Below are positions 43,192 to 56,870 of a stretch of DNA of 64,000 bases, piece by piece. Within the stretch, counting starts at the first letter, position 1. Each line of letters begins with the position of its first letter. Origin of the DNA: a virus (Duplodnaviria; Caudoviricetes); IMG/VR virus record IMGVR_UViG_3300032220_000132, positions 207 through 64,206 of that record; one strand, given 5' to 3'. The notes beneath the pieces were generated by a model that saw only the letters and a list, made by a program, of their open reading frames with translations, made no database searches and was not told where the DNA came from. The position numbers were made by a program, and so were the translations under genes.

Positions 43192-43346
43192 GAAAGGTGA
43201 GCATACGAACAGTTGAAAATACTATTGGGCTGGCACGTAGTGTTGCTAATGGAACAACCAAGTTCCCGTTTATGGGCTATTGCGCAGACCTGATGGAAAA
43301 GATGTTAGAAGAGATTAAACAAGCAAGAAAGGCACAAGAGAAATGA
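43188..43346 (+). CDS. Hypothetical protein (52 aa; not in ORF track)
   Basis: MRKVSIRTVE...QARKAQEK; ATGA overlaps. Confidence 0.6.
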   Translation: MRKVSIRTVENTIGLARSVANGTTKFPFMGYCADLMEKMLEEIKQARKAQEK

Positions 43347-43579
43347 AAACTATAATTCATGTAAATCAACATGAAGTTAAGGCTAATTCTAAAAACGGGA
43401 CTGACAACCCTGTGCTTACTATAAAAACGTACAAGAGTAATACTTATGCCCACGAGGTAGCAATTAAAGGTGAAAGCAAGGTAGTGTATTCGCCTGATAA
43501 ACCATTACCTTGTGGTGCTAAAGTATGGATAGAAACTAACTCACCAGTGGAGATACTAAGAAAGGCACAAGAGAAATGA
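43343..43579 (+). CDS. Conserved phage hypothetical protein
   Basis: IIHVNQH...PVLTIK...YSPDKPLPCGAKVWIET. Confidence 0.7.
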   Translation: MKTIIHVNQHEVKANSKNGTDNPVLTIKTYKSNTYAHEVAIKGESKVVYSPDKPLPCGAKVWIETNSPVEILRKAQEK

Positions 43580-43788
43580 CCACTTTTACCACTGAAGATC
43601 GTGAAAATGCCTCACCCCCACATATTGTGGACACAGGCGCTAGTTATGAACCTATCCCATTTGCTGGTCTGGTAGCCTTACAGGACAAAGAAGATACCGA
43701 ACAGATGCTCCGAGAGCAACTGCATGTTGTTCAGGCTGAGTGCCAAAGACTCCAAGCCATATTAAGACAAGCTGGGATCCCGTATTAA
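43576..43788 (+). CDS. Hypothetical protein
   Basis: MTTFTTEDR; ATGA overlap. Confidence 0.6.
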   Translation: MTTFTTEDRENASPPHIVDTGASYEPIPFAGLVALQDKEDTEQMLREQLHVVQAECQRLQAILRQAGIPY

Positions 43789-43940
43789 TATGAACAGAAT
43801 GGAAGAAGAGTTTAACCAATGGGCTATAAATAATATAGAGCCATGGCCTCATCCCCAAAAGATCCTGCAAAATTATTGGATCGTCTGGCAAGCAGGGTGG
43901 AATCGGGCATACAATGTATCCTCTAGTGTGAGGGTCAGCG

Positions 43941-44126
43941 ATGAAGACGATGGTAGATGTTAATAAAACAACTGGGTTTGAAGCAGAATTAACCCATGAA
44001 GAGATAGCCAAGGAGATGGGCATATCTCGTGCTTATGTATCCCATTTGGAGAAGATTGCCTTAGATAAGATTAGACGAGCTTTAAGAGCTCGCTATGACG
44101 TTTATGCCCCAGATGATCTTATATGA
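43941..44126 (+). CDS. Sigma70 region-4-like HTH protein
   Basis: LTHEEIAKEMGISRAYVSHLEKIALDKIR. Confidence 0.7.
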   Translation: MKTMVDVNKTTGFEAELTHEEIAKEMGISRAYVSHLEKIALDKIRRALRARYDVYAPDDLI

Positions 44127-44416
44127 CCATCTACCGCAATAAGAAGCTCCTAGAGTCCGTTAGAACCAGCCCATGCCAGAACTGTGGCAAACAAGACGGG
44201 ACAGTCTGCGCTGCACATTCAAACCAGCTCCGTGACGGAAAAGGGAGATCCCTCAAGTCCCACGATTACCGCATCGCAGCATTATGTTTTCGGTGTCATT
44301 CCAATCTGGATCAGGGCTACCAGATGAGCAAAGAAGAACGTACCGAGCTTTGGGAAGAGGCGCACCGCAAGACGATTGGCTGGCTCTTTGAGAACGGAAT
44401 AATTGATATAAAATAA
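44123..44416 (+). CDS. HNH-like Zn-binding nuclease (DUF968/DUF1364-like)
   Basis: PCQNCG...AAHSN...ALCFRCH. Confidence 0.65.
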   Translation: MTIYRNKKLLESVRTSPCQNCGKQDGTVCAAHSNQLRDGKGRSLKSHDYRIAALCFRCHSNLDQGYQMSKEERTELWEEAHRKTIGWLFENGIIDIK

Positions 44417-44420
44417 AATC

Positions 44421-44541
44421 GTATGCTTGGTGTCTTTCAATAAGGCTGACCCCTAACCCCATGTTAGGGGGGTTTGAATACCAAGTAGTTGGTGTTGAGC
44501 CCCAATAGACTACACGAAAAGCTCCTTAGACCCAAGCATAC
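44421..44541 (+). ncRNA. Putative structured ncRNA 1
   Basis: Closing stem gtatgcttgg(t)gtct/agacccaagcatac; inner cccctaac/gttagggg and gtagt/actac stems; strand uncertain. Confidence 0.45.
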
Positions 44542-44553
44542 AACTACTAAATA

Positions 44554-44583
44554 TTGACACTTTTTTTTGATTTGTGCTATATT
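44554..44583 (+). promoter_or_regulatory. Sigma70 promoter of small RNA
   Basis: TTGACA-18-TATATT with extended -10 TG. Confidence 0.75.
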
Positions 44584-44588
44584 TAGTG

Positions 44589-44712
44589 CACCAGCCCACA
44601 CTGGTATCGCACGTTCTCCACTCCTAGCAGATTGGTTTTGTGCAAAGCAAGCCCTCGGTGAACACACTCACCTCAAAACCCCCAGGCTCACACTCCTGGG
44701 GGTTTTTCTTTT
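44589..44712 (+). ncRNA. Putative antisense small RNA (seed CUCCUAGCAG)
   Basis: Promoter upstream, four hairpins, intrinsic terminator aaaacccccagg/cctgggggtttt 44675-44706, no credible ORF. Confidence 0.65.
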
Positions 44713-44726
44713 GTGAAAAAAAATTG

Positions 44727-44755
44727 TTGCAAATTTATTTCTGTTGGTTTAATCT
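44727..44755 (+). promoter_or_regulatory. Putative sigma70 promoter of replication operon
   Basis: TTGCAA-17-TAATCT, A-tract upstream. Confidence 0.5.
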
Positions 44756-44760
44756 AGTCG

Positions 44761-45005
44761 TGCTAGGAGAATTACGAGAACGTGTGAAAGGCATAACTGC
44801 CTCTTCACTCTTCGTAACTCTCCACAGCTACACCATATAGGTCGGACATAACAACAGCTATATGGGAAGACCCCCTACTGTGGGATTAGATCTGAAACAG
44901 GGGAAAGGATGGCGAAGCCAGAGTCCTAGATCGAACGTCTGGCGGGTGCAGTGGCTCCGAAAAGCAACTGTTGAAGGCACACCTAGGAGAGGCTAGGTGC
45001 GTCCA
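44761..45005 (+). ncRNA. Long structured 5' leader of replication operon
   Basis: Long hairpin 44766-44823; ccatatag/ctatatgg; tggc-gaa-gcca; cacctag/ctaggtg. Confidence 0.5.
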
Positions 45006-45049
45006 CCAAAAAGCAACTCTTCTTACTTGACTGTATTACTTACTTAACT

Positions 45050-45208
45050 ATGACCAAATATGAGATAAGAGATGAGACAGGCGACCTGATGCGAATAGTC
45101 GGGCGCTTAGAAGAAGCCAAGAGTTTAATCGCTGTGCGTAAGGGCTGGTCGTACAAGCGAGTGAAGGACCATAAACCAGCCTTTGTGTTTGAAGAAGCCC
45201 CATTTTAA
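45050..45208 (+). CDS. Hypothetical protein (52 aa; not in ORF track)
   Basis: MTKYEIRDETGDLMRIV...FEEAPF. Confidence 0.55.
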   Translation: MTKYEIRDETGDLMRIVGRLEEAKSLIAVRKGWSYKRVKDHKPAFVFEEAPF

Positions 45209-45218
45209 GGAGAGTGTT

Positions 45219-45623
45219 ATGAAAATGACTGTAGAGTTCAATAGTATTGCGGACATGGCAAACTTTTCTGCCTTTGTCAATCAGCGTTTAGAAGAAGATG
45301 CAAAAGTCAGAGAGTTAAATCAATTGCGAGGACAACTGGATTTAGCCAAGCAACAACTGGAACGTGCCTATGCCCGCTTGCGTTTTAAGGATGACAAGGA
45401 CAACGAGAAGACTTATGCGATCTCGCTTGATGATCTGCCACTAAAAGTCCGAACCTACAACTGTTTGATAGCAGAAGGATGCCAAAATGTTGGTGATGTT
45501 GTGGCATTGTTCCAAAAAAACCAATTGCGTAAAATCCCAAACTTTGGCAACGGCAGTTTCAGTAATCTCAAAAGAGTCTTTGCCGAACAATTAAAAATAA
45601 CCCTTGATCGGAAACAAGCATGA
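45219..45623 (+). CDS. Protein with RNA polymerase alpha-CTD-like domain
   Basis: SD aaggag; LDDLPLKVRTYNCL...GDV...LRKIPNFGNGS. Confidence 0.75.
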   Translation: MKMTVEFNSIADMANFSAFVNQRLEEDAKVRELNQLRGQLDLAKQQLERAYARLRFKDDKDNEKTYAISLDDLPLKVRTYNCLIAEGCQNVGDVVALFQKNQLRKIPNFGNGSFSNLKRVFAEQLKITLDRKQA

Positions 45624-46489
45624 AGAAACTAAATATACTCAACATCCGCACTGATGGGGGCACTCAGCCCCGTGTCCAACTGGATCAAGACCTAGTCAAA
45701 GAATATGCCGAGGTCATGCGTGAGGGAGTCGTTTTCCCACCAGTAGAAGTATTCCATGATGGCTCAGAATACTGGCTAGTCGATGGATTCCATCGCTACT
45801 TTGGTTATAAAGCTAATGGTTTAACCAGTATCGAAGCGATTGTCCATACTGGCACACTGCGTGAAGCCCAGTTTTACGCATGGAAAGCCAACAACAAGCA
45901 TGGCAACCGCCTTAAAGCCGAAGATATCCGTGCCATTCTCCGCATCATGCTTGTCGATGAGGTATATAGCAAATGGTCAAACAACCATATTGCTAAGGAA
46001 CTAGGTATTTCCAGCATGACTGTTGGGCGTGTGCGGGTAGCAATGCAAGAAGAAGCTAAAACCCCAGCCCAAACTTCTGTTACTTATGTCGATAAGCATG
46101 GCAACACAACCACCATGAAGACCGATAAAAAGAAGAAAAAGGCTACAACCAAAGCTCCAACTACTAAACCTGATGTCACCACCGAAAGCCCAACCGCAGA
46201 ACTAGAGCAAAAGGTAAACGAATTAACCGATACAGTGAACTCACTGGCAGACGAAAACACCCTACTGCGGGATAAGATTGCCATCGGACAGTGGGATGCC
46301 TCAGAAATTGAGAAGATCGATGCTGAGCAGACCATCAAAGACTTGCGTGAGCAGATCCGAGTATTGGAAATTGAGAACAAATCATTGCGTGAAGGCAGAG
46401 ATATGTATCAGAACCGCAACTCCGAGTTAATGAAGACTGTTAAATCATTAACCAGCAGGCTAAAGAAATTTGAAAAGGAGACTGCATGA
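45620..46489 (+). CDS. ParB N-terminal-domain protein with HTH and coiled coil
   Basis: GTQPR...FPPVEVF...LVDGFHRY; WSNNHIAKELGISSMTVGRVR. Confidence 0.75.
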   Translation: MKKLNILNIRTDGGTQPRVQLDQDLVKEYAEVMREGVVFPPVEVFHDGSEYWLVDGFHRYFGYKANGLTSIEAIVHTGTLREAQFYAWKANNKHGNRLKAEDIRAILRIMLVDEVYSKWSNNHIAKELGISSMTVGRVRVAMQEEAKTPAQTSVTYVDKHGNTTTMKTDKKKKKATTKAPTTKPDVTTESPTAELEQKVNELTDTVNSLADENTLLRDKIAIGQWDASEIEKIDAEQTIKDLREQIRVLEIENKSLREGRDMYQNRNSELMKTVKSLTSRLKKFEKETA

Positions 46490-46650
46490 CCGACTACTCC
46501 GATGTATGCACAGCGATCAAGCATACGATCCGCACCGCATACGAACTAGCCAATGAAAGGAAGATAAAAGAGGCTTTGGAAGAAGCCCGATTCCTTTCTG
46601 CGTTGGCAACACAGTTAGAAGAAGCACTTAAAAAAGAACTGGGCAAATAA
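46486..46650 (+). CDS. Hypothetical protein (54 aa; not in ORF track)
   Basis: SD aaggag, ATGA overlap; MTDYSDVCTAIK... Confidence 0.6.
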   Translation: MTDYSDVCTAIKHTIRTAYELANERKIKEALEEARFLSALATQLEEALKKELGK

Positions 46651-46697
46651 CTGCCCAAGCCCAAGTTAGGGGGGAATCCTAACAGTTAGGAGTATTT

Positions 46698-48179
46698 ATG
46701 CAGTCTTTAGAATTGCGTGAGCATCAACTCAACGTGGTCGATGCTCTACGAGATGGATTTAAACGTGGTCATAGATCGCAATTGCTTTATGCACCAACAG
46801 GATTTGGAAAGACTGAGGTAGCCATCTACCTTATGAAAGCCACATCTGATAACTACAAACGAACATCCATGGTCCTAGATCGGGTGGTGCTGGTCGATCA
46901 AACCAGTATGCGCCTGACCAAGTATGGCATCAAGCATGGTGTATTCCAAGCTGACCATTGGATGTTTGACCGCCACAACCGCATTCAGGTATGTTCTGCC
47001 CAAACCCTAGAACGCAGATCTGACTTCCCAGAGGTCGATTTGATGATCGTGGACGAGTGCCATATCGCTAGGAAGCAGACATCTGACTTTATCCTGAACA
47101 ATCCCAACATCAAAGTCATAGGGCTCACCGCAACCCCATTTACCAAAGGATTGGGGGATCTCTATACCAATGTGGTGTGTGGCGCAACCACCGAAGATCT
47201 AGTCAATAAGAAGTGGCTGACCCCCTTGAAAGTCTATATCGCCAAAGAGATAGACATGACTGGGGTAAAGAAGGTCGCTGGTGAGTGGTCGGCAGATCAA
47301 GTAACAGAACGAGGGATGCGTATTACTGGCGATATTGTGGATGAATGGATCAAAAAGACCCATGAAATCTATGGCAAACCCATGAAGACCATCGTTTTTT
47401 GTTCAGGTGTAGCCCATGGCGCAGACCTTGTAGAGCAGTTTGCTATCAAGGGATACAACTTTGTCTCAATATCCTACAAGGATAATGACGATTTTAAAAA
47501 GGCAGCGATTGAGGATTTTGCCAAGCCCGATACCCAGATCAACGGGCTGATCGCCACCGACATCCTGACCCGTGGCTTTGATGTCTCGGATGTAATGATC
47601 GGAGTTTCTGCCCGACCCTTTTCCAAATCCCTGTCATCCCACATCCAACAGATGGGGCGTGTAATGCGAACCCACGAAGGCAAGGAGTTTGCCCTGTGGC
47701 TTGATCATTCGGGCAACTACATTCGTTTTCGAGAGGATTGGGATGAAATATACGAAGATGGGGTGCGTTCTTTGCGTGGCAAACAGGAAAAAGCCAAGAA
47801 AGAACCCACTGAGAAGATCAAAAATGAGTCCAAATGCCCATCCTGTGGGTATTTATGGCCCAAAAACAGCGATACCTGCCCTGCCTGTGGTCATGTCCGT
47901 AAGAGACGCAACCATGTTGATGCTGTGGCAGGTGAGTTAATCGAACTGGTAGCGGGCGTAAAAGCAAGAAAAGATGATAAGCAGATCTTTTACTCTGAAC
48001 TTTTGTATATCGCACAGCAAAGAAGTTACAACCCCAACTGGGCAAGTCATAAGTATCGGGAGAAGTTTGGGGTATGGCCTAAAGGATTAGCGGATACCAC
48101 CATTCCCCCATCCATCAATACCCAAAAGTGGATCAGGAGTAAAGACATTCAATGGGCAAAAAGGAGAGATAGGGCATGA
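46698..48179 (+). CDS. SF2 DExH helicase with C-terminal Zn finger (RadD/YejH-like)
   Basis: APTGFGKT, DECH, LTATP, QMGRVMR, CPSC...CPAC. Confidence 0.9.
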   Translation: MQSLELREHQLNVVDALRDGFKRGHRSQLLYAPTGFGKTEVAIYLMKATSDNYKRTSMVLDRVVLVDQTSMRLTKYGIKHGVFQADHWMFDRHNRIQVCSAQTLERRSDFPEVDLMIVDECHIARKQTSDFILNNPNIKVIGLTATPFTKGLGDLYTNVVCGATTEDLVNKKWLTPLKVYIAKEIDMTGVKKVAGEWSADQVTERGMRITGDIVDEWIKKTHEIYGKPMKTIVFCSGVAHGADLVEQFAIKGYNFVSISYKDNDDFKKAAIEDFAKPDTQINGLIATDILTRGFDVSDVMIGVSARPFSKSLSSHIQQMGRVMRTHEGKEFALWLDHSGNYIRFREDWDEIYEDGVRSLRGKQEKAKKEPTEKIKNESKCPSCGYLWPKNSDTCPACGHVRKRRNHVDAVAGELIELVAGVKARKDDKQIFYSELLYIAQQRSYNPNWASHKYREKFGVWPKGLADTTIPPSINTQKWIRSKDIQWAKRRDRA

Positions 48180-48952
48180 GAAGAAACTATCCAGCACGAA
48201 TACATTTGAAATGTGAAGTTTGTGAAACAGAATTTACAAGACCGCCAAGCCTTGTTAAAAAGGTTAAACGATCCTTTTGTAGCAAAACCTGTGCAGATAT
48301 AGCGCAAACTACCGCACCAAGATTTGATTTTAAGTGCGAGGTATGCAAGAAAGTTTTTAGAGATACCAAAGATCATGGTGCTGACAGGCGTTTTTGTAGC
48401 CGTGAATGTTTTTGTGCTAACGCACCAGACCTATCTGAAAGAGACTGCCCTCAGTGTGGTGTTTTATTTAAGCCACATAAATCATCACATACAGAAGAAA
48501 GGGCAAGTAAATATTGTTCTAAAAAGTGCTACACAGAAAGCCAAAAGACTGGTGAAGAAGTGTCATGCTTAAATTGTGGAAAACTTTTTTATACCAATCC
48601 AAGCCATTCAAACACTTGCTGTTCCATAAAATGCAGTAGCGAGCATTACAGAGGGTCAACTTCTCATATGTGGAAAGGTGGGAAATATGTCGCTGAAACC
48701 ACAGGGCATAAGTTTGTGGCATTAGAACGACCTGACAGGGTAGGGAAGTATGTTGCAGAACACAGAATGGTAGCCATGCGACAGATTGGAAGATTGCTAG
48801 AGCAATACGAAAAGGTAATTCACCTTAACAATTTGCCTGACGATAACAGACCTGAAAATCTATACATATGTGGCACAAATAGTCATATGAGAAAACTATT
48901 TAATGGCACTCTGCCATGGCCTAAGAAAAGCAACTTAAAGGAATACAAGTAA
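48176..48952 (+). CDS. HNH homing endonuclease-like protein with tandem CxxC...CS..C repeats
   Basis: Four Zn-finger repeats; AEHRMV...IHLN..PDDNRPENL. Confidence 0.75.
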   Translation: MRRNYPARIHLKCEVCETEFTRPPSLVKKVKRSFCSKTCADIAQTTAPRFDFKCEVCKKVFRDTKDHGADRRFCSRECFCANAPDLSERDCPQCGVLFKPHKSSHTEERASKYCSKKCYTESQKTGEEVSCLNCGKLFYTNPSHSNTCCSIKCSSEHYRGSTSHMWKGGKYVAETTGHKFVALERPDRVGKYVAEHRMVAMRQIGRLLEQYEKVIHLNNLPDDNRPENLYICGTNSHMRKLFNGTLPWPKKSNLKEYK

Positions 48953-49758
48953 TGAGGTTTGAAGACTTTGCCCGATCCCATGGGCTGATTATCAACAGTG
49001 TTGTTCCTTTTAAATGGGTAGCAACCCCAACAGATGACCATCCACATAAGCGTAATGGGCGCTATAAATTCATGGGTGATGTTGGCTGGGTGCAAAACTG
49101 GGCAACCATGGATAAGCCAAGTATGTGGCGCAATAATGGAAATTATGCGACAACCCCACAGTTTCTAAAACTGCGAGACCAAGAAGACCAAAAACGCAAG
49201 GCTTTGGCTGATCGTGCTTGTGCAAAAGCAGGCTGGATCATGCACCAGACTGAAGTTATGCACCATCCATATCTGTTAAAAAAAGGTTTTCCAGACGAGA
49301 AAATGCCCGTGCATGACGGCAAATTAGTAGTGGCGATGCGGAAAGATGGAAAAATAGTAGGATGCCAACTCATCAATGACGAGGGGGATAAGAAGTTTCT
49401 CTATGGTCAGCAGACGAAGGGGGCAACTTTCACCTTTGATGCAAAAGGTGTCCCGATCTTCTGCGAGGGTTTGGCTACGGGCTTGTCTATTCAGGCGGTA
49501 ATGAGAGCCAATAAAATGCGATACACAATCCATGTTTGCTTTAGTGCAGGCAACCTCAAGGAAGTAGCAAGGCTTATCCCCAATGGGATAGTCGTGGCTG
49601 ACAATGACCCCAGTGGTGTCGGAGAAAGAATCGCCAAAGAGACAGGCAAACCTTATTGGATCAGCGACACAATCGGGCATGATTTCAATGATGACTATGT
49701 TGCTCATGGTCTATTTAGGATGTCCCAATCCCTCAAAAAGGTGTTGATAGGCAGATAA
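48952..49758 (+). CDS. Toprim-domain DNA primase
   Basis: HPYLLKKG, CQLI...GDKKF, CEGLATG, FSAGNL, ADND, DFND. Confidence 0.85.
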   Translation: MRFEDFARSHGLIINSVVPFKWVATPTDDHPHKRNGRYKFMGDVGWVQNWATMDKPSMWRNNGNYATTPQFLKLRDQEDQKRKALADRACAKAGWIMHQTEVMHHPYLLKKGFPDEKMPVHDGKLVVAMRKDGKIVGCQLINDEGDKKFLYGQQTKGATFTFDAKGVPIFCEGLATGLSIQAVMRANKMRYTIHVCFSAGNLKEVARLIPNGIVVADNDPSGVGERIAKETGKPYWISDTIGHDFNDDYVAHGLFRMSQSLKKVLIGR

Positions 49759-49761
49759 TAT

Positions 49762-49793
49762 AGAAAAACCCCCAGTCTTACGGCACTGGGGGT
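49762..49793 (-). terminator. Intrinsic terminator of leftward early operon (possibly bidirectional)
   Basis: acccccagt/actgggggt stem with U tract on - strand. Confidence 0.8.
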
Positions 49794-49815
49794 ATCTATT
49801 TACTGCTAGGTAAAT

Positions 49816-49962
49816 CTAATTAGGTTTTGGATCTTTCTTTTCCTCTAACTCCTCAACCCGCTTAATTAGGGTATCAACTCGGTCATTCCACAACTGGGAA
49901 TCCACCGACTGAGGCCATGTAATTAAGTGTTCTTTTATAAGTTCTAAGATACTTTTAGGCAT
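49816..49962 (-). CDS. Early hypothetical protein (48 aa; not in ORF track)
   Basis: MPKSILELIKEHL...; ATGCCTAA overlap. Confidence 0.55.
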   Translation of the reverse strand: MPKSILELIKEHLITWPQSVDSQLWNDRVDTLIKRVEELEEKKDPKPN

Positions 49963-50128
49963 TCGGATCTACCTCATCTAATCCGTAAACCTCAACAATT
50001 TCCCAGTTATCTACATCCTTGGGATTAGCCACATCCATCCCATATTCTTCAGGATCTTCCCCATTTGGCACATCCACCTCAACATAGGTAGTCCCAATAA
50101 ATTTGACACTCATTCCATATCTACGCAT
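49955..50128 (-). CDS. Early acidic hypothetical protein
   Basis: YVEVD motif; start approximate. Confidence 0.55.
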   Translation of the reverse strand: MRRYGMSVKFIGTTYVEVDVPNGEDPEEYGMDVANPKDVDNWEIVEVYGLDEVDPNA

Positions 50129-50304
50129 GATTCTTCCTTTATTCCACATACACACAAATAAACACCTTTACAGTCAGGATCAAACCCAAAACTCTTGGCA
50201 AGATCATCCCAATCCCTTGGCACTATCTCAGGATCAACATACATCCACCCACCCTTGGGTAAAACTGTATATCCCGCTTGTTCTACCTCTTGTTGGTTAA
50301 GCAT
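50110..50304 (-). CDS. Early hypothetical protein
   Basis: MLNQQEVEQAG; ATGCTTAA overlap with SD gaggag. Confidence 0.6.
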   Translation of the reverse strand: MLNQQEVEQAGYTVLPKGGWMYVDPEIVPRDWDDLAKSFGFDPDCKGVYLCVCGIKEESCVDME

Positions 50305-50452
50305 CTTGCATCTCCTCAACTCTGACATACTCAGGTGTCTCAAAATGATCCCATGTAGATTGCTCGTATGCTTTACTAATCGCACTATCTTGATCTTTAG
50401 CATCAACTTCTACATACCCATACGATACAAACACAACTGTATATTTAGGCAT
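50297..50452 (-). CDS. Early hypothetical protein (51 aa; not in ORF track)
   Basis: MPKYTVVFVSYGYVEVDAKDQDSAI...; SD gaggag. Confidence 0.65.
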   Translation of the reverse strand: MPKYTVVFVSYGYVEVDAKDQDSAISKAYEQSTWDHFETPEYVRVEEMQDA

Positions 50453-51086
50453 CTTCCATCTCCTCAAGTTCTTTCTTCTTGGCGATCAACTGGGCAGAAA
50501 GTTCAGCATCATCCTTTTCTTTCAAGGTTTCTTCCAGTTCCTCGATCTCATCAGCAAGTTCTTGCATAGCCCATTCTTTCATGCTCTCGGTGATGCCAAA
50601 CTCAAGGTCAATGTTATCGGGGATATTGTTTTTGACATCCAACCAATTACCGCTAATGTCATAGGTCTCATCTGAACCATCCACATATTGACCGCAAAAG
50701 CAACAACCGCCCTCATAGTAAAGAGCATTCACCCCATAACCTTGATCTACCAGTTTGTCAAAGATTCCAGTAGGCGGAGACCACGCAGTGGCGAATGATG
50801 CTCTGATCTCATTTTCCTGAATATCAATGTAGGCTTCATCCGTAGTAATCTCCCACTTTGTTCCCCAGTTCTGAACCCGCCAATCCCACCATGCTGATTC
50901 AGGATTAACTGGATCGTCATTACCCTTGATACTGGGGAATGTCGGCTTGACCTTTACCTTGGTGTAATCAGGCTCAGGATGGATAGTTCCAAAGAATTTG
51001 TTTGCTTTCCACGCATCCACAAGAACCTGAATCTTCTTGGGATCATCATGGGTTATATATACAGTGTTATCGCACCAATTAGGCAT
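50445..51086 (-). CDS. DUF1281/YubB-like ferredoxin-fold protein
   Basis: MPNWCDN...WWDWRVQNWGTKW...FATAWSPP...YYEGGCCFCG. Confidence 0.8.
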   Translation of the reverse strand: MPNWCDNTVYITHDDPKKIQVLVDAWKANKFFGTIHPEPDYTKVKVKPTFPSIKGNDDPVNPESAWWDWRVQNWGTKWEITTDEAYIDIQENEIRASFATAWSPPTGIFDKLVDQGYGVNALYYEGGCCFCGQYVDGSDETYDISGNWLDVKNNIPDNIDLEFGITESMKEWAMQELADEIEELEETLKEKDDAELSAQLIAKKKELEEMEDA

Positions 51087-51264
51087 TTTGATTCTCCTTA
51101 TGTTGTTGTTCAGCCAGTCTTCTTTGCTTCATAGCCATCAGCCGACCATAGTGCATCTTGTCTTCTAATCGCCATTCGTAATATTCGATCTTGCATCTTT
51201 TCGTTAAATCGAAAAACATACTATTCATTTCCAATTCAATTTCTTCAAGTGATTTTTTAGGCAT
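51079..51264 (-). CDS. Early hypothetical protein
   Basis: MPKKSLEE; SD gaggag. Confidence 0.6.
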   Translation of the reverse strand: MPKKSLEEIELEMNSMFFDLTKRCKIEYYEWRLEDKMHYGRLMAMKQRRLAEQQHKENQNA

Positions 51265-51436
51265 TTGCTTTCTCCTCTTCAGAAATAACAAAGTAATAGG
51301 TGCTATAACATTTTGGGCAAACTACCTCGGCTTCTTCCTGCCCTTCAATCTCATGCTCGGCATGGGTAAACCCAATGTGATGGCAGTCCAAGCAAATGTT
51401 CTGCACATCATCTTCTACTTCAAAGTATTTAGGCAT
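51257..51436 (-). CDS. Early Zn-ribbon protein
   Basis: CLDC...CPKC. Confidence 0.65.
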   Translation of the reverse strand: MPKYFEVEDDVQNICLDCHHIGFTHAEHEIEGQEEAEVVCPKCYSTYYFVISEEEKANA

Positions 51437-51608
51437 CTTCACACTCCCCTGCATAAACTTCTTCGTAGATTGATTTGATAACCTCACCCTCATGCTCATC
51501 AGCACAGTATTCAATGACATCCTGAACTGTCCAATGTCCTACATGGATTGTTCTGCCTGATGCAAACTCAACCATGTAAGCCTTTTCGTAATCTGAGTCA
51601 TAACTCAT
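51429..51608 (-). CDS. Early acidic hypothetical protein
   Basis: SD gaggag; MSYDSDYEKAY. Confidence 0.65.
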   Translation of the reverse strand: MSYDSDYEKAYMVEFASGRTIHVGHWTVQDVIEYCADEHEGEVIKSIYEEVYAGECEDA

Positions 51609-51903
51609 CTTCACACTCCTCATCAGTGCTAACGCATACCTCTAACCCATCACCCTCATAAGGCACTTCGGTAATGTAATAGTAGATACGATTGACCAAG
51701 TGATAACCATCCACCACATAAGTCCCGCCATCCCCATCCACATAAGTCCATACCCGCTTTGGCTGAGTATCTGCAATACCCAAGACATAACCCAGTTCAA
51801 TGTCGTATGTCTCAAAGTAATCCCTTGTGCATTCCCGATTCTCACCTCTTGCGAGGTGATTTTGAATCGGTTTGTATTTGTCATACCATTCATCAAAATC
51901 CAT
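51598..51903 (-). CDS. Early conserved hypothetical protein
   Basis: FDEWYDKYKPIQN...FETY...VWT...GYHLVNRIYY. Confidence 0.7.
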   Translation of the reverse strand: MDFDEWYDKYKPIQNHLARGENRECTRDYFETYDIELGYVLGIADTQPKRVWTYVDGDGGTYVVDGYHLVNRIYYYITEVPYEGDGLEVCVSTDEECEDEL

Positions 51904-51912
51904 ATAGCCCCC

Positions 51913-52392
51913 TTACCAACTGGCTTGATAGTAAAACTCATACTGATCTTCGGGCAGTGATTCCAACGCACTGGTAATGCCCTCGACAGTATTCTTTAGG
52001 TCTTGCCAATACCATTCATCCTTTTCGTATGAACCAAAAAAGAATCCCTCTACTGGATCTAAATCATCATCCCTTATGCCATCAGGATCATTCAGGATTG
52101 ACTGGCACAAGTCCCGCAACTCCACCAGTTTTTCCCTTGGCACATAGGATTGCTGACACTCATCCACCCCACCCTGACAGTTTTCCACGAACCACCCATG
52201 GATAGCGTTAGCCTTTCTCCAATACATGGCATCAATGGATACTTCCTTGACCACAAGGCTCGATCCCCCAAATCGTTTCTCAGGATTACCATCAACCCCA
52301 ATCATTTGATTGACCTTTTGAGATATTTCCTTGTCCTCGTCTCGGTGAGACGAAAGATATCTCTTGGCAGTTAAATACATATCTAAACCCAT
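51913..52392 (-). CDS. Early conserved phage protein
   Basis: MGLDMYL...YWRKANAIHGWFV...GFFFGS...YQASW; leader aactgctaggag. Confidence 0.8.
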   Translation of the reverse strand: MGLDMYLTAKRYLSSHRDEDKEISQKVNQMIGVDGNPEKRFGGSSLVVKEVSIDAMYWRKANAIHGWFVENCQGGVDECQQSYVPREKLVELRDLCQSILNDPDGIRDDDLDPVEGFFFGSYEKDEWYWQDLKNTVEGITSALESLPEDQYEFYYQASW

Positions 52393-52408
52393 AACATTCT
52401 CCTAGCAG

Positions 52409-52473
52409 TTAAAGTTATGATTGCCGAATGACAATCCCTATGCCCTCACACAAAGGCATAGAAGTATCACTCA
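52409..52473 (-). promoter_or_regulatory. RNase III-like processing hairpin, copy A
   Basis: ugagugaua/ugucauucg plus cuaugcc/ggcauag; homologous to 55063-55129. Confidence 0.6.
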
Positions 52474-52722
52474 GGGCATCACTGGCAAACAGGATTGCTT
52501 ATCATCACTGGTAAACAATGCACCACCACCATTCCCCTCATCATCCCGACTGGGGAAGAACCACAGACCATCATGGGTTTGAAAAGCGATTGACCTTTCA
52601 TACCAACCCATCTCCCCCATTTCTTCCTTGGTCATGTATCGAACATTGACAATGCGTTTATGCAACAACAGTTTTTTGGCTTCATCATTCCAATACTTGT
52701 CGTAATCCTTAATTTCTTTCAT
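52471..52722 (-). CDS. Early hypothetical protein
   Basis: VRYMTKEE...PSRDDEGNGGGALF. Confidence 0.7.
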   Translation of the reverse strand: MKEIKDYDKYWNDEAKKLLLHKRIVNVRYMTKEEMGEMGWYERSIAFQTHDGLWFFPSRDDEGNGGGALFTSDDKQSCLPVMP

Positions 52723-52731
52723 CACACTCTC

Positions 52732-52809
52732 CTAGTTAAAAGTAACGATTGCAGACCACACCACATACGCAGTGTAGGCTACTGCTATTGGCACAATCCA
52801 GTCCCACAT
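52732..52809 (-). CDS. 25-aa single-TM peptide (not in ORF track)
   Basis: MWDWIVPIAVAYTAYVVWSAIVTFN; TAATG coupling. Confidence 0.5.
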   Translation of the reverse strand: MWDWIVPIAVAYTAYVVWSAIVTFN

Positions 52810-53093
52810 TACTGCACCCCCTCTAATTCGTAATCAACTTCAAAAATAGTGAGATTGTCCTTATCAATCTCAACAATGGTGAAGTCCTCACCATCATTAA
52901 GAACATCTCCCGCTTTCAACGATTCCATTTCCTGCCCAGTCAAAAAGAAGTAAATCTTTTCATCTGCCCAACTATCAAAATACGCATCTTCAGGATGACC
53001 ATCTTCTGCAACTCCCAGTAATACATTTGCACCATCACCTAACCAGTCGCAACTAATGACTGCGTCATAGGCTTTAATCTTCATTGTCGGCAT
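52809..53093 (-). CDS. Early acidic hypothetical protein
   Basis: Leader aactgctaggag, 6 nt to ATG 53093. Confidence 0.7.
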   Translation of the reverse strand: MPTMKIKAYDAVISCDWLGDGANVLLGVAEDGHPEDAYFDSWADEKIYFFLTGQEMESLKAGDVLNDGEDFTIVEIDKDNLTIFEVDYELEGVQ

Positions 53094-53112
53094 ATCCATC
53101 TCCTAGCAGTTT

Positions 53113-53218
53113 GACAAAGACCCCCCGACTGCTTCGTTTACTCATACAGGCATATTGCGTCATATACTCAGTAAGGTAATTAGGGGGGTTTCGACTATTC
53201 AAGTCTCTTCAGTTTGCC
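53113..53218 (-). ncRNA. Type I hammerhead ribozyme
   Basis: GGCAAA CUGAAGA GACU-ugaau-AGUC GAAA CCCCCC...GGGGGG UC^ UUUGUC; all core residues and GUC cleavage triplet present. Confidence 0.88.
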
Positions 53219-53403
53219 TAGTAATCCTCGTTTTCTTCCCACAGGCAAGGATCAACTAACCTTTGCCCGAAAGCATTGAACAACTGCCCACAATCACAAG
53301 CAACATCCTCGCCTGAACCATCCGAGCAGACCTTTTTATTGCACTGGCACTTCCATTCCCGCCACAGAATTCGACCAGTATCTTGGCATTCAACGATTCT
53401 CAT
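53218..53403 (-). CDS. Early Cys-rich (Zn-binding) protein
   Basis: CQC...CDCGQLFNAFGQRL. Confidence 0.65.
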   Translation of the reverse strand: MRIVECQDTGRILWREWKCQCNKKVCSDGSGEDVACDCGQLFNAFGQRLVDPCLWEENEDY

Positions 53404-53711
53404 TATTCAAACTCCTTTGGCACGATCACATCAAACTTACGCAACAGGGCTATTGCCTTGTCAGACAGGCACATCACTCCGTCATATTCATCCAAGGTGC
53501 GGACTCCAAACTGGTCAATGGTGAACCACAGACCAATGTATTCAAAACCCACATCCTCGATATCCCACTCAATGAACCCAGTAGCATCATCCCTAAAATA
53601 CAACTCCATGGTGGATTCGTGAGTCCCGATATCCTTCTCGCCCCAACTGCCTTCCATAATCAAAGGGCAGTTAAAGGTCTCTTTGCCGATAAAGTAGTGA
53701 GTCATAATCAA
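53403..53711 (-). CDS. Early hypothetical protein
   Basis: Coupled ORF; IGLWF...EYDGVMCL. Confidence 0.65.
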   Translation of the reverse strand: MIMTHYFIGKETFNCPLIMEGSWGEKDIGTHESTMELYFRDDATGFIEWDIEDVGFEYIGLWFTIDQFGVRTLDEYDGVMCLSDKAIALLRKFDVIVPKEFE

Positions 53712-54070
53712 TACTCCGAACTAAGCATAAGAACATTGTCGGTCAGGAAGAACTGATACTCCCCATCAGGGCAGTCAGTATGCTCAATATGCTTTTGTTT
53801 GAAAGTCCTGTAATCACCATCTTCAATACTGATATCGGCACTGCCATTGGCAACTGCCAATTTGATAGCCAAAAATGGCTCTTTCTTGAGCAGTGGAAAT
53901 GCTTCAGTGGCGATAATGTCCAAGAACCAGTAAGCACCATTTCCCGCATTGTCAGCAAAGTATTTAACTCCGTCAGTGTGAACCATGTCCTTAGCAAAAA
54001 TAGGATTGGTGCGATAGTAATTCTCAGTCCCATAAAACTGGGATAAATCTAATTTGGTAGTCGATTCCAT
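53708..54070 (-). CDS. DUF6876-like protein
   Basis: LSQFYGTENYY...TDGVKY...AYWFLDII...VLMLSSEY. Confidence 0.75.
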   Translation of the reverse strand: MESTTKLDLSQFYGTENYYRTNPIFAKDMVHTDGVKYFADNAGNGAYWFLDIIATEAFPLLKKEPFLAIKLAVANGSADISIEDGDYRTFKQKHIEHTDCPDGEYQFFLTDNVLMLSSEY

Positions 54071-54265
54071 TTAATTCTCTCCCTTAATTGAGGTAGGTTT
54101 TAACGATTTAACAAAAGCAACTGCGTGGTGATGAAAAGCAAATGTAGCAAGCCAGTATTTCCTAACATGGATATCAGGCTTGCTTGACACAGGACTGGCA
54201 TCATATTCGTCAAGTCTGACAACCTTAAAAGTAAAATCAGGTGTTTTTTCTATTTCATAATTCAT
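54071..54265 (-). CDS. Early hypothetical protein
   Basis: MNYEIEKTPDF; start approximate. Confidence 0.5.
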   Translation of the reverse strand: MNYEIEKTPDFTFKVVRLDEYDASPVSSKPDIHVRKYWLATFAFHHHAVAFVKSLKPTSIKGEN

Positions 54266-54653
54266 CTTCTTCATCCTCTGCACCAAGCACAGTATCGACA
54301 ATGTAATCACCAAACTTCAGAACCCCATCATCATTGGTGCATAAGGTGGCAGTCTCAAACACTACAAGCGTTGAATCCTTGCGATCATCAGTAGCGTAAG
54401 CAACAGGCACAAGACCAATCAAACCCGCATCAACTGGGTAAGTATTGCCTTTGTTATCGGGATAGCAACCATCACCCCATTTAGTGCCAAAAGCAAGAAC
54501 TTCAAAGTCCCCAACTTTGCCAACAGGGGCATTGAAGTAATTGCATGATGCAAGCAGATCGCCCCAATCCTTATCAGGCACTACATAGCAGGGATCGCCA
54601 AGGATGTAAGCACCCTTTGGAACTACGACAGATATAGAACTTAATGTAAGCAT
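54255..54653 (-). CDS. Early conserved protein (GDPCY / GDGxY / VDAGLIG family)
   Basis: Named motifs present in translation. Confidence 0.7.
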   Translation of the reverse strand: MLTLSSISVVVPKGAYILGDPCYVVPDKDWGDLLASCNYFNAPVGKVGDFEVLAFGTKWGDGCYPDNKGNTYPVDAGLIGLVPVAYATDDRKDSTLVVFETATLCTNDDGVLKFGDYIVDTVLGAEDEEDEL

Positions 54654-54655
54654 GA

Positions 54656-55045
54656 TTAGATTCCTCTGTAATTGTCAGGGTTATATTCCCGTTGATGCCC
54701 CGCATAATCAACGGCTTTGTAGTCAGCAATCTCAACATTCAAAGGGATCACCTGCAACCCAGTTAATTGCTCGATACGGCAAGCAGTCAGGATGCTAACA
54801 ATCATGGTGTAAAGATTATCATCATCAGACCTAACATCCAGTAGAAGCGAGGTGTGGCGGTCAGTAGTGCTAATCAATCTGCCAATCTCGCCAGTCCAAA
54901 CAAGCAGACCATCCTCTGTGGAAGATGGATCATTCAGGTTAGCGATGCTATGGTCAGCAAGGGCAACAGTGTTGTTGTCCTCATTGTGGAACAGGTAATG
55001 CGAGAAGCATTTCTTGGCTTCAATTTTATTAACCAATTCAAACAT
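54656..55045 (-). CDS. Early hypothetical protein
   Basis: Leader aactgctaggag. Confidence 0.7.
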   Translation of the reverse strand: MFELVNKIEAKKCFSHYLFHNEDNNTVALADHSIANLNDPSSTEDGLLVWTGEIGRLISTTDRHTSLLLDVRSDDDNLYTMIVSILTACRIEQLTGLQVIPLNVEIADYKAVDYAGHQREYNPDNYRGI

Positions 55046-55062
55046 ATTAAATCTCCTAGCAG

Positions 55063-55129
55063 TTAGTCGAATGATTGTTGAATAACAATCCCTAAACCCA
55101 TTGGGTAATGGGCTTAGAGGTATTACTCA
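55063..55129 (-). promoter_or_regulatory. RNase III-like processing hairpin, copy B
   Basis: ugaguaaua/uguuauuca plus cucuaagcccauu/aauggguuuaggg. Confidence 0.6.
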
Positions 55130-55351
55130 ATAACTGGCTCTCGCTTCTGCTTGATGCTCAGCCATCATATCGGCACGAACATCAACCATGGCTTGCAGGG
55201 ATTGGATTGTCTTAACGACATCCATATCGTTTAGGGCTAATTCTTCCAGTAATTGGCTATCATCATAGGCTTCTACTACGACATCCCAACCCATGTTGTA
55301 TAAGGCTTCAGCGTATGCTTTGATTGCTTGAATCTTGTCTTGCTCAGTCAT
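55127..55351 (-). CDS. First early gene, hypothetical
   Basis: Leader ctactaggag; YNMGWDVVVEAY. Confidence 0.7.
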   Translation of the reverse strand: MTEQDKIQAIKAYAEALYNMGWDVVVEAYDDSQLLEELALNDMDVVKTIQSLQAMVDVRADMMAEHQAEARASY

Positions 55352-55395
55352 TATTTTCTCCTAGTAGTCGAATCGGTGTTTAAGCACCTACCGAC

Positions 55396-55424
55396 AGTTT
55401 TACAAAGTAGCAATACCATGTCAA
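55396..55424 (-). promoter_or_regulatory. Sigma70 promoter of leftward early operon
   Basis: TTGACA at 55424-55419, -10 region tgTAAAACT, AT-rich upstream element. Confidence 0.6.
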
Positions 55425-55636
55425 TACCTTTTTGAAAATATTTTTAGGGCTTACTGGATAAGGGTTTGCGGGGCATGGAGTCTGGGCAAATAGACCTAAA
55501 AGCGGGCAAAGGTGCGAAGCACAACAGTCCAGTAGCAAAGACACTAGAGAGAGATATAGGAGAGATAGAAGATAGTAGTAGCAGAATCATCCTGATTGCC
55601 CTAGAATCAGGCTATGACGATTCTCAAGAGATACCT

Positions 55637-56437
55637 ATGAAAAGGCTAACAAGGAAAGAGATAGAGCAAGGCTTACAGGCTATGCCAGTGGATACTCTTT
55701 TACTGGGGGTTAGCACTGCCAAAGAAAAGCGATTAACCCACAAACAAATCGAATTTGCCAAGCAGGTAGCACTGGGAGAAAGCAAGGCAGGGGCTTATCG
55801 GAAGTCGCATAACAGTAAGGGAAAGCCAAGCACACAGAGCAAGAATGGGCAGGCTCTCGCAAAAAACAAGGCTATCCAAACCCAAATAGATGCGTTTAAG
55901 GTGGCACTTGAGGCACAGAAATATCAAACTCCTGCTCATTTAAGGGCATTGGCAATCCATCGGATCACTGAAAAGGCTCTCGATCCTGCTTGCCCGCCTG
56001 CTCAGCAACTCAAGGCACTGGAACTATTGGGGAAGATAACCGAGGTCGCACTCTTTACCGAGAGACGAGAGGTAATTAAGGTCAGTGATCCCAGTGAGAT
56101 GCGGGAGAAACTCATGGCGAGTATCAGACTGGCAATCGAGAACAGTCAGGCAATCGACATTGAGGCACGATCCGCAGACGATCTACTGGCAGAACTCGTG
56201 GGAACTAACAATCAAGATGATGATGTGGCGGGAAATGATGCAGAACTAGATGATGTGGATGCAGAGACATCCTTAAAAGAGGTGGCAGACCCTTCGCAAA
56301 AGGCAGATCTCGAAGACCCACAGACCCCCGACAGCCAAATTTTGGCATTGGCTCGTGAGCCAGACTTGCATAGTATTCCACACAATGAATCCCCTCCTAA
56401 ATCCACTGAACCTAGGGAAAACCCTGCCTCACTATAA
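55637..56437 (+). CDS. terS: Terminase small subunit
   Basis: LTHKQIEFAKQVALGESKAGAYRK HTH; QLKALELLGK; upstream of TerL; start reassigned to ATG 55637. Confidence 0.7.
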   Translation: MKRLTRKEIEQGLQAMPVDTLLLGVSTAKEKRLTHKQIEFAKQVALGESKAGAYRKSHNSKGKPSTQSKNGQALAKNKAIQTQIDAFKVALEAQKYQTPAHLRALAIHRITEKALDPACPPAQQLKALELLGKITEVALFTERREVIKVSDPSEMREKLMASIRLAIENSQAIDIEARSADDLLAELVGTNNQDDDVAGNDAELDDVDAETSLKEVADPSQKADLEDPQTPDSQILALAREPDLHSIPHNESPPKSTEPRENPASL

Positions 56438-56467
56438 CAGCTGTTATAGTGACACAGGGTAAACCCT
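56414..56467. repeat. 24-bp perfect palindrome flanked by two AGGGWAAACCCT boxes
   Basis: tcactataacagctgttatagtga 56429-56452; boxes at 56414-56425 and 56456-56467. Confidence 0.8.
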
Positions 56468-56502
56468 AACTCTTATACAAGACCCCCCACCCCCTCATAA
56501 AT

Positions 56503-56691
56503 ATGTCAGACGATAAAAAAATTGTTCCACGTGAAACACCCCCCGTCAGTGATTTGGGTCCCATCCTAACGCTAGACCCAGATGTATTAGAAGATCGGCT
56601 AAAGAGGTTAAGTGTCAAAGACCAAAAGAAATTATTGGATATGATTAATAAATATCAGGCAGTAATGTTAAGTAAGGACTCACAACCATGA
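56503..56691 (+). CDS. Hypothetical protein
   Basis: ORF coupled to next gene; weak SD. Confidence 0.45.
   Translation: MSDDKKIVPRETPPVSDLGPILTLDPDVLEDRLKRLSVKDQKKLLDMINKYQAVMLSKDSQP
56523..56538. promoter_or_regulatory. parS: Canonical parS centromere site
   Basis: tgttccacgtgaaaca = TGTTNCACGTGAAACA consensus. Confidence 0.8.
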
Positions 56692-56870
56692 ACGCACCAA
56701 AAATTACGGCAGTACAAAAAGAACAGCTCGTCTTGGATTATTTGGAAGAGTTATTACATAAAGACAAGGGTCGGTTGTTACGGATGATGAGTTATTTGAA
56801 AGAAAGAATATTGGAAGAGGAAGCAATGGCACGGGCTCAAGATGTCATTGAACGTGTCAAACATGGGTAG
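56688..56870 (+). CDS. Hypothetical protein
   Basis: SD aagga, ATGA overlap. Confidence 0.55.
   Translation: MNAPKITAVQKEQLVLDYLEELLHKDKGRLLRMMSYLKERILEEEAMARAQDVIERVKHG

Follow-up and report, generated by a model that had tools for sequence, protein, structure and literature searches.

Comparative analysis of DNA from an uncultured freshwater phage (Duplodnaviria; Caudoviricetes) suggests that its early genes are controlled largely via RNA. The stretch analysed, referred to here as the window, comprises 64,000 nt (positions 207-64,206 of IMG/VR record IMGVR_UViG_3300032220_000132). It carries a predicted small RNA (sRNA) that is trans-acting, ∼120 nt long and equipped with its own promoter and terminator. 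The best-supported candidate partner of this sRNA is the 5' end of the adjacent transcript, termed T2, which contains a Betaproteobacteria-1 RNA and the replication module, and not the early mRNAs. In the window's clade, the predicted seed also matches a common leader, CUGCUAGGAG, that contains the Shine-Dalgarno sequence. A preliminary description of this DNA had proposed that the early transcript is cut into units that share a leader and are silenced together by one phage sRNA. Its observations are confirmed and extended here, but the interpretation as an RNA circuit is upheld only in part.

The small RNA gene and the T2 transcript

The sRNA and T2 lie next to each other on the + strand, with the following features.

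44554-44583, +: sRNA promoter, sigma-70-type, TTGACA-18-TATATT with a TG extension (promoter scan; kept in relatives)
44585-44712, +: sRNA, ∼120 nt, comprising a 5' hairpin, seed loop, box UUGUGCAAnGCAAGCC, second hairpin and terminator (conservation in 42 of 59 loci; no Rfam family)
44610-44618, +: second sRNA pairing block CACGUUCUC, complement of 44776-44784 (pairing and co-variation analyses)
44621-44630, +: anti-leader CUCCUAGCAG, with the invariant core CCUAGCAG at 44623-44630 (35 of 35 distinct variants; accessibility)
44675-44706, +: sRNA intrinsic terminator, 12-bp stem (terminator scan; compensatory changes in five pairs)
44727-44755, +: T2 promoter TTGCAA-17-TAATCT (read by eye; boxes recur in relatives; missed by the promoter scan)
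44760-44787, +: T2 5' end, GUGCUAGGAG, 6 nt, GAGAACGUGUGA; candidate bipartite sRNA target (co-variation, G-U bias, best non-self duplex in the window)
44761-44831, +: long T2 5' hairpin, with cis pairing of the target arm (evident in 15 of 19 lineage representatives)
44831-44947, +: Betaproteobacteria-1 RNA (RF02932) within T2, upstream of the replication genes (Rfam match, 98.3 bits)

Its conservation marks the unit at 44585-44712 as a genuine RNA gene, and the preliminary account of a separate small unit with the antisense of the leader in a loop is borne out. Present at 42 of 59 related phage loci, it comes with a dedicated promoter and intrinsic terminator and lacks a conserved reading frame; aligned variants differ by indels whose lengths are not multiples of three. 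The promoter matches at 11 of 12 positions and is the top of 19 promoter-like sites in 42000-58000, a region not enriched in such sites (29.8 expected). The folding z score is −4.1, and the 5' hairpin co-varies (ACCAG/CUGGU versus GUCAG/CUGAC). The loop seed CCUAGCAG is found in 35 of 35 distinct variants with the conserved box, and CCTAGCAG in all 35 distinct box-plus-terminator variants despite differing flanks. Folding models predict that the seed loop is mostly open, with a mean unpaired probability of 0.63 compared with 0.44 elsewhere in the RNA, and the seed has the higher value in 32 of 34 variants. No Rfam family, C4 included, matches 44540-44830 at E values up to 10, and the family, with 35 variants and one target that co-varies unusually clearly, is thus new to Rfam.

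That target is T2. The sRNA and T2 are complementary over 16-27 nt, and the seed plus its variable 5' flank align in 30 of 34 distinct pairs of sRNA and downstream region. When complementarity was summed over the flank only, cognate pairs from 19 lineages reached 158 versus 91.1±6.3 for permuted pairs, a value attained in 0 of 100,000 permutations. Transition differences within the pairing comprise 15 G-U and 2 A-C (p=0.0012). Since the complementarity co-varies and tolerates G-U, it would act at the RNA level. A crude duplex scan of 10,662 windows places T2 as the top non-self sRNA duplex, and in L023 and L032, where the seed is CUUAGCGG, both the T2 site and a hairpin in the leftward operon's 3' untranslated region are changed accordingly. 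Thus, a conserved, accessible seed complementary to a ribosome-binding region is accompanied by co-variation that is strong for T2 and weak for the mRNA leaders, and the partner named in the preliminary description, the early mRNAs, is displaced by the adjacent T2 5' end.

The Betaproteobacteria-1 RNA within T2 is a full-length member of RF02932 (98.3 bits compared with a gathering score of 49.4; model positions 1-120), is also present in 7 of 8 relatives and lies 96-168 nt downstream of the sRNA in 31 loci. Rfam lists RF02932 as an orphan small RNA, whereas here it is located inside a phage 5' untranslated region, which gives the orphan motif a genomic setting. A literature search returned no paper text on this RNA.

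Shared leaders and processing-type elements

The leaders and the elements that precede them are distributed as follows.

38861-38871, +: leader ACUGCUAGGAG, first gene of the rightward recombination operon; promoter TTGACA from 38819 (motif search)
49768-49793, both strands: bidirectional terminator separating the replication and leftward operons (terminator scan)
49798-49815, −: hairpin AUUUAC-CUAGCA-GUAAAU, past the last leftward stop codon and ahead of the terminator, with the same seed as the sRNA; co-varies with the sRNA in L023 and L032 (window and 17 loci)
52399-52409, −: leader after two-hairpin element 2 (motif search)
52419-52461, −: two-hairpin element, copy 2 (family alignment, pairing)
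53100-53110, −: leader after the hammerhead (motif search)
53113-53218, −: type I hammerhead, predicted cut between 53119 and 53118 (motif reading, co-variation, descriptor)
55053-55063, −: leader after two-hairpin element 1 (motif search)
55073-55117, −: two-hairpin element, copy 1 (family alignment, pairing)
55358-55368, −: imperfect leader ACUACUAGGAG, first leftward gene (motif search; motif complete in L016)
55396-55424, −: leftward early promoter, TTGACA with a −10 box of type TAAAAC or AAAACT (by eye; absent from the promoter-scan list)

The early genes do share a leader, as had been described. Allowing at most one mismatch, ACTGCTAGGAG occurs six times in the window, against an expectation of 1.09; none of 100 shuffles attains this number. 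Exact copies are located at 38861 (+) and at 52399, 53100 and 55053 (−); the one-mismatch copies are that at 55358 (−) and the antisense copy at 44621-44631 within the sRNA unit. All four exact copies in the window are at 5'-proximal cistrons, each with a start codon 5-7 nt past AGGAG. The first leader past the leftward promoter (55358) is short of three motif nucleotides that are present in relatives such as L016. The series CUGCUAGG, Shine-Dalgarno sequence and start codon is found downstream of 43 out of 57 distinct processing elements, and CTGCTAGG is carried by 43 of the 57 distinct element-plus-leader combinations. In the window's clade the leader is located at every predicted place of fresh ribosome loading: after each early promoter, each hammerhead and each two-hairpin element. 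Its conservation could reflect translation efficiency alone.

The preliminary description had asked whether the leader and the sRNA loop co-vary in relatives. The seed matches the leaders after those 43 elements, but beyond the core the co-variation is weak: for the upstream flank, 665 of 20,000 permutations reached the value of the cognate pairs (p∼0.03), for both flanks together 2,734 of 20,000, and the permutation test revealed no co-variation for the downstream flank. In L021, the leaders have CC at −1/−2 opposite GG of the L021 sRNA, and at least nine paired bases, extending to one or the other side of the core, are available between sRNA and leader in 21 of 21 lineages. In the crude duplex scan, the hammerhead leader is among the best 14 sites and the other three leaders are not. 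The case that had been put forward as refuting, namely a leader that changes while the sRNA loop does not, occurs in outlying clades (L029, L018/L019, L022, L026, L037-L041 and L061), which keep the seed and have hammerhead or other leaders that do not match it. The L023/L032 clade, with its changed seed, keeps hammerheads and two-hairpin elements, which are followed by unrelated AAGGGG leaders.

The element at 53113-53218 is, by its core and co-varying stems, a genuine hammerhead, as first described; it is of type I, with predicted self-cleavage. It consists of stem I (GGCAAA/UUUGUC), the core CUGAAGA, stem II, GAAA, stem III with a long insert, and GUC before the predicted cut. The window copy has the catalytic core (CUGANGA ... 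GAAA ... UH with the A15.1-U16.1 pair), which is invariant across 20 aligned relatives. Stem I is open; 7 of 10 counted pairs in stems I and II are changed on both sides, and stem III varies in sequence with its pairing kept. Over 937,618 nt of window and relatives a strict descriptor matches 38 sites, whereas the reversed sequence yields none and five shuffles yield 0-1 each. The window copy has no Rfam match even at E values up to 10, and no Rfam hammerhead family reaches its gathering score in eight loci; compact hammerheads in L014 are sub-threshold matches to Hammerhead_3 (30.5 versus 48.5 bits), RAGATH-1-hammerhead (26.3 versus 56.3) and Hammerhead_II (24.9 versus 37). At hammerheads, CTGCTAGG lies 3-4 nt past the predicted cut, overlapping the Shine-Dalgarno sequence.

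The two-hairpin element has two adjacent helices of 10-12 and 7-8 bp (∼18-20 bp in total) with a strongly conserved sequence, and is separated from the leader by 3-15 nt. In its family of 25 distinct sequences, 8 of 17 pairs are changed on both sides and 99.8% of cells pair, the latter figure arising partly by construction from a descriptor that demanded pairing. Hammerhead and two-hairpin element swap before a gene that is 90% identical, and this interchangeability makes the latter a good candidate for cleavage. Hence, the claim that processing-type elements precede the internal leaders holds. The sole RNA run with the phage, X20, is kept as contigs only, with low and unoriented cover; since these contigs span a two-hairpin element and the convergent terminator, they may be DNA.

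Proposed mechanism and competing explanations

We consider it probable, if by no means certain, that the sRNA seed pairs with both the T2 5' end and the shared leaders of processed early units, lowering early and replication functions. The long leftward transcript would be cut by hammerheads, leaving a 5'-OH end 9 nt before the leader, and presumably also at the two-hairpin elements. The sRNA would then cover the Shine-Dalgarno sequence of each released unit and invade the T2 hairpin, such that early and replication functions would be turned down as it accumulates. The second seed copy, which lies in the leftward operon's 3' untranslated region, may provide self-limiting feedback. Repression as the sign of regulation is an assumption. 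An immunity role, also raised in the preliminary description, is unsupported since no integrase was found among 31 proteins scanned and no prophage copies of the phage were found.

Regulation of the neighbouring T2 only, comparable to the action of P1 c4 on the gene directly downstream and with the early-leader match a by-product of T2 starting with the standard leader of the phage, is an alternative that we regard as unlikely. All of the strong co-variation involves T2, the leader flanks barely co-vary, and several clades keep the seed together with a T2-type or replication-gene target without matching early leaders. However, the 8-nt seed is constant in 35 variants despite free turnover of the T2-specific flank, as expected if many targets constrain the seed. 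Moreover, the only clade with a changed seed lacks the leader regulon, the L021 leaders are altered to fit their sRNA, and ten paired bases across a Shine-Dalgarno sequence suffice for known small RNAs. It is rather unlikely that the sign or direction of regulation is another, with the sRNA opening the T2 5' hairpin and thereby activating or stabilising T2, or with T2 and the 3'-untranslated-region hairpin titrating the sRNA as sponges or competitors that time the release of the leaders. Because the target arm is locked in cis in 15 of 19 lineages, sRNA binding must remodel the hairpin; T2 also pairs far more strongly than the leaders, and a third co-varying site exists. Against this, inspection by eye revealed no conserved reading frame past the Shine-Dalgarno-like motif of T2.

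Two further explanations dispense with sRNA pairing or with processing. The recurrence of CTGCTAGG near promoters and the inverted DNA repeat around the small unit would fit an operator or a translational-repressor site, the repeat being kept for a DNA-level reason, but the differences between the arms are strand-specific (G-U over A-C), the arms co-vary rather than keeping a single consensus, and the motif lies just past hammerhead cut sites over the Shine-Dalgarno sequence, which makes such a motif highly improbable. Hairpin promoters of the N4 type, read by a phage RNA polymerase, are scarcely credible: small conserved hairpins do lie shortly upstream of a conserved sequence resembling a transcript start and the phage encodes a 4550-aa protein, but this has large-polyvalent-protein and Sbno-type helicase domains with no polymerase domain found in the domain search, hammerheads take identical positions, and the hairpin-leader spacing is variable. 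Going beyond the joint action on T2 and leaders that we favour, we entertain only as a speculative and quite doubtful extension that RNA governs nearly the whole early programme of this phage family, with the sRNA and a 3'-untranslated-region fragment of the early operon sharing one seed and acting on ribozyme-created mRNA units, the two-hairpin element being either a novel self-cleaving motif or the target of a dedicated nuclease, and the Betaproteobacteria-1 RNA a regulated leader of the replication genes.

Relation to known RNA systems

T7 early mRNA is processed at RNase III hairpins, each about two turns of double-stranded RNA cut by the host enzyme. As in T7, intercistronic stem-loops would divide a polycistronic early transcript; unlike the T7 hairpins, those described here are two short adjacent helices of strongly conserved sequence, for which RNase cleavage is only a candidate. 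In T4, the RegB endoribonuclease and the RegA translational repressor effect a global shut-off of early mRNAs at the Shine-Dalgarno or initiation region. The shut-off proposed here would be of the same type, except that the candidate effector is an RNA rather than proteins.

The c4 antisense RNA of the P1/P7 immI operon acts on icd/ant through two-block a'/b' pairing. The phage sRNA resembles c4 in lying directly upstream of its target, in having two short blocks that could pair with the next transcript at its ribosome-binding region, and in the variation of these blocks between related phages. Unlike c4, it has its own promoter and terminator and is not processed from the target transcript, several further leaders match its seed, and nothing points to a lysogenic repressor system. 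Membership of the C4 antisense RNA family (P1, P7 and P4-type) was considered and rejected, as the C4 covariance model gave no match at E values up to 10 over 44300-56000 or 44540-44830. The c4 RNA is reported to repress Ant synthesis (PMC8546580).

Clustered hammerheads flank genes in prophages and phages, and Perreault et al. 2011 (PMC3088659) suggested that long phage transcripts are processed to gene- or operon-length mRNAs. As in the clusters covered there, several hammerheads lie between genes of one operon; the phage differs in having a common, sRNA-pairable leader that follows each ribozyme within 1-4 nt and a second, non-hammerhead element in the same position. For the many hammerheads that lie between bacterial and phage genes, the adjoining sRNA-addressable leader provides a concrete hypothesis of purpose, in which ribozyme cutting would convert coupled cistrons into separately controlled translation units.

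Gene layout and a conserved small RNA

The virus record comprises 64,206 bp with direct terminal repeats, and the window covers nearly all of it. A DNA search against named phages (7,991 nt) gave one weak match, with 6% cover and 69.8% identity, and the relatives originate chiefly from freshwater metagenomes. The genes are arranged as follows.

Gene layout of the window
Up to 38343, rightward: structural genes, including SU10-type adaptor proteins and a 4550-aa large polyvalent protein
24691-38343: the 4550-aa protein, with large-polyvalent-protein domains (LPD1, LPD38) and an Sbno-type helicase
Promoter at 38819, rightward: recombination operon with a PD-(D/E)XK nuclease and an ERF protein
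44554-44712: the small unit analysed here, between the recombination operon and the next transcript (T2)
Past the Betaproteobacteria-1 RNA of T2: replication genes encoding RNA polymerase alpha-CTD-like, ParB-N, ResIII helicase, HNH and Toprim proteins
55424 down to 49816, leftward: operon of small genes without known function

PHROGs assigned a family to three of ten leftward proteins, all three of unknown function. A near-perfect palindrome at ∼38761-38783, which may be an operator, separates the promoter at 38819 from a minus-strand reading frame of 112 aa without a Pfam match (38404-38742). Directly past the recombination operon's final gene, a GC-rich hairpin with U's after it (44444-44475) probably ends that operon ahead of the small RNA promoter.

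The small RNA (44585-44712, plus strand, ∼120 nt) has the top promoter match of the region and a 12-bp terminator. Among 59 related viral loci retrieved with the helicase (59–99% identity), a profile search located it in 42, always ∼1.5–2 kb 5' of the helicase and on the same strand; three of the 42 scored weakly, and in these the promoter, seed and terminator were seen by eye. The alignment shows the promoter, a co-varying 5' hairpin, a conserved box, a second co-varying hairpin and the terminator. RNAalifold was run on a MAFFT alignment in which the 5' stems are misaligned, and for that reason recovered just the terminator and a single small hairpin. In 32 of 34 variants the seed (loop bases 44623-44630) is more open than the remainder of the RNA. 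An independent IMG/VR scan, with the conserved box as query and the seed left out, returned 68 distinct contexts; a small-RNA-like terminator accompanied 36 of them, and the seed CCTAGCAG was present in 35 of these, the remaining one (1/36) being a chance match. Rfam offered no family for the small RNA, only terminator-driven or microRNA noise. The related locus L029 has, at ∼1650-1760, a seed-bearing unit with the same type of −10 box and without a U-rich terminator, which seems to continue into a longer structured non-coding stretch.

Partners of the seed

A conserved promoter-like box pair, read by eye and missed by the promoter scan, lies ∼45 nt past the small RNA terminator, and the first bases of the T2 transcript are complementary to the seed and its 5' flank. 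When each distinct small RNA was compared with its downstream region (34 pairs), 30 aligned over 14–34 nt, the seed included. The flank varies among lineages, yet it matches inside each genome. When the seed was excluded, cognate flank complementarity in 19 lineage representatives summed to 158, compared with 91.1±6.3 for permuted pairings; the largest permuted sum was 124, and 0 of 100,000 permutations reached the observed value. This flank-only test replaced a matrix of whole-RNA duplex energies, which was dropped because long imperfect duplexes dominated it.

The complementarity could also reflect a palindrome in the DNA. At transition differences between the arms, pairing of the plus-strand RNAs would give 15 G-U and two A-C combinations (P=0.0012, the related loci not being fully independent), which argues for RNA pairing and against a DNA palindrome. 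In loci L023 and L032 the seed is CUUAGCGG, and the start of T2 is altered along with it. Otherwise the target arm forms one side of a long 5' hairpin of T2, clear in 15 of the 19 representatives, partial in three and absent from L018. Within the window (10,662 tiles), T2 is the top non-self duplex partner of the small RNA. By these sequence comparisons the T2 5' arm is the strongest partner, and its predicted binding by the small RNA is well supported.

A third site with the seed lies in the leftward operon's 3' untranslated region.

49815-49798, minus strand: small hairpin with the seed in its loop, located past the last leftward stop codon and ahead of the convergent terminator

Its strand was inferred from U-runs. 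Besides the window, 17 loci have hairpins of this type; the counterpart in L023 and L032 doubles as a minus-strand terminator and carries the variant seed in its loop, so that the third site co-varies with the seed of the small RNA. We read this 3' untranslated hairpin of the early operon as a putative second seed carrier.

Candidate processing elements and the common leader

The preliminary description had noted a common leader, the small unit, a hammerhead and twin hairpins, and all of these hold. The 11-mer leader, which contains the Shine–Dalgarno sequence, occurs six times against 1.09 expected, and four exact copies each precede the start codon of a 5'-proximal cistron. The candidate processing sites in the window are as follows.

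53113-53218, minus strand: hammerhead with a complete core and three stems
55073-55117 and 52419-52461, minus strand: twin hairpins, two copies of one element

A strict type I hammerhead descriptor found 38 sites in 937,618 nt, none in the reversed sequence and 0–1 in each of five shuffles. The leftward operon holds 36 of the 38, each followed within a few bases by a Shine–Dalgarno sequence and a start codon. Co-variation is seen in stems I and II, with the caveat that the sequences were selected for pairing, and Rfam scores of the hammerheads fall under the gathering threshold. In a relative seen in the DNA run X2, 20 other letters take the place of 64 nt in the stem III insert (window 53122-53187), which fits a freely variable stem III. 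Hammerhead-like sites at 1564-1676 in L042 and 8203-8294 in L045 lie on the opposite strand with a different stem I and no leader after them, and may represent a separate ribozyme lineage.

For the two-hairpin element a descriptor gave 61 hits, of which 53 were judged true; these comprise 25 distinct sequences, and 8 of 17 pairs show co-variation. Rfam returned only terminator-driven or microRNA noise for this element. Reading the hairpins as N4-type promoters was rejected, since the giant 4550-aa protein was found to contain no RNA polymerase domain. In the window, L013 and L048 a two-hairpin element stands ahead of the gene at 51913-52392, whereas L014 and L015 have a hammerhead there, the L013 protein being ∼90% identical to those of L014/L015. 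The two elements are thus interchangeable, which supports a processing role for both. The gene at 53708-54070 has an ordinary coupled ribosome-binding site in the window, whereas in L007 (near 11726), L008, L009, L016 and L034 a two-hairpin element and the common leader stand in front of it; element and leader therefore come and go together, in the manner of a cassette.

The seed-matching leader core CTGCTAGG is found in 43 of 57 distinct combinations of element and leader, comprising 20 hammerheads and 23 two-hairpin elements. Five of the 14 exceptions belong to the variant-seed clade (L023, L030, L032) and five to L025 and L029; the other four come one each from L018/L019, L021, L048 (one mismatch) and L057 (one inserted base). 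The L021 leaders are changed to match its own small RNA. In all 21 lineages the pairing extends past the 8-nt core by one base pair or more, on either side. The proposal that early mRNAs are processed into units with a common leader draws support from the 43 combinations and from the interchange of elements. For silencing of these units by the small RNA, co-variation with the mRNA-leader flanks is weak. The expectation that leader and small RNA loop change together fails outside the window's clade, where L029 retains its seed-bearing unit and the seed persists in L022, L026, L037-L040 and L061, loci that contain the motif nowhere else. The case for a regulon instead draws on the exact match over the Shine–Dalgarno sequence, the contrast between a frozen seed and a free flank, and the finding that the sole clade with a changed seed has no seed-matching leaders.

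Proposed role and the Betaproteobacteria-1 RNA

We take the small RNA, from its sequence, to be a probable trans-acting regulator with two kinds of target, the T2 5' arm and the early leaders of the window's clade. It would bind the T2 arm and, in that clade, would cover the Shine–Dalgarno sequence at each cistron with fresh ribosome initiation. By established ribozyme chemistry, hammerhead cleavage leaves a 5'-OH end, and the predicted cut would yield a 5'-OH message starting 9 nt before the leader. Among 24 sequencing runs, 20 hold part of the stretch, one of them RNA. The contigs of this RNA run, X20, comprise 38 low-depth pieces on both operons, some bridging 52183-52740 and 49474-50128, which are possibly DNA carry-over and from which transcript starts and ends cannot be read; the contigs of X23 and X24 include no pieces on the stretch.

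Immunity had been suggested as one role. A scan of 31 proteins showed no integrase domain, and a search of species genomes for prophage copies (helicase query, exact peptide words) returned just a 3.2-kb contig of one metagenome-assembled genome, a match that says nothing on host or lifestyle. Feedback or shut-off in the lytic cycle is for these reasons more likely than immunity.

The layout of the small RNA is reminiscent of P1 c4, an RNA that acts in trans to repress Ant synthesis (PMC8546580), although the small RNA is outside the Rfam family of c4. Hammerheads flanking genes of phages have already been published, together with the suggestion that long transcripts are cut by them (PMC3088659). 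What is new is the small RNA family, its co-varying target, and predicted ribozyme cuts tied to a common leader that a small RNA can address; this combination was not described in the literature covered on phage small RNAs, anti-Shine–Dalgarno pairing and polycistronic phage hammerheads, the Perreault 2011 supplements lying outside that coverage.

No relevant literature was found for the Betaproteobacteria-1 RNA by name, the supplement of the paper naming RF02932 being outside coverage. The Rfam model matches at full length at 44831-44947 (98.3 bits), inside a phage 5' untranslated region before the replication genes. This RNA was found in 33 of the 59 related loci, and in 31 loci it lies 96–168 nt past the small RNA, so that an orphan motif gains a setting. 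The product of the first sizeable gene past it (45183-45623) is a small protein in which Pfam detects an RNA polymerase alpha C-terminal domain (E=7e-12); the true start of the gene is likely the ATG at 45220, which is preceded by AAGGAG.
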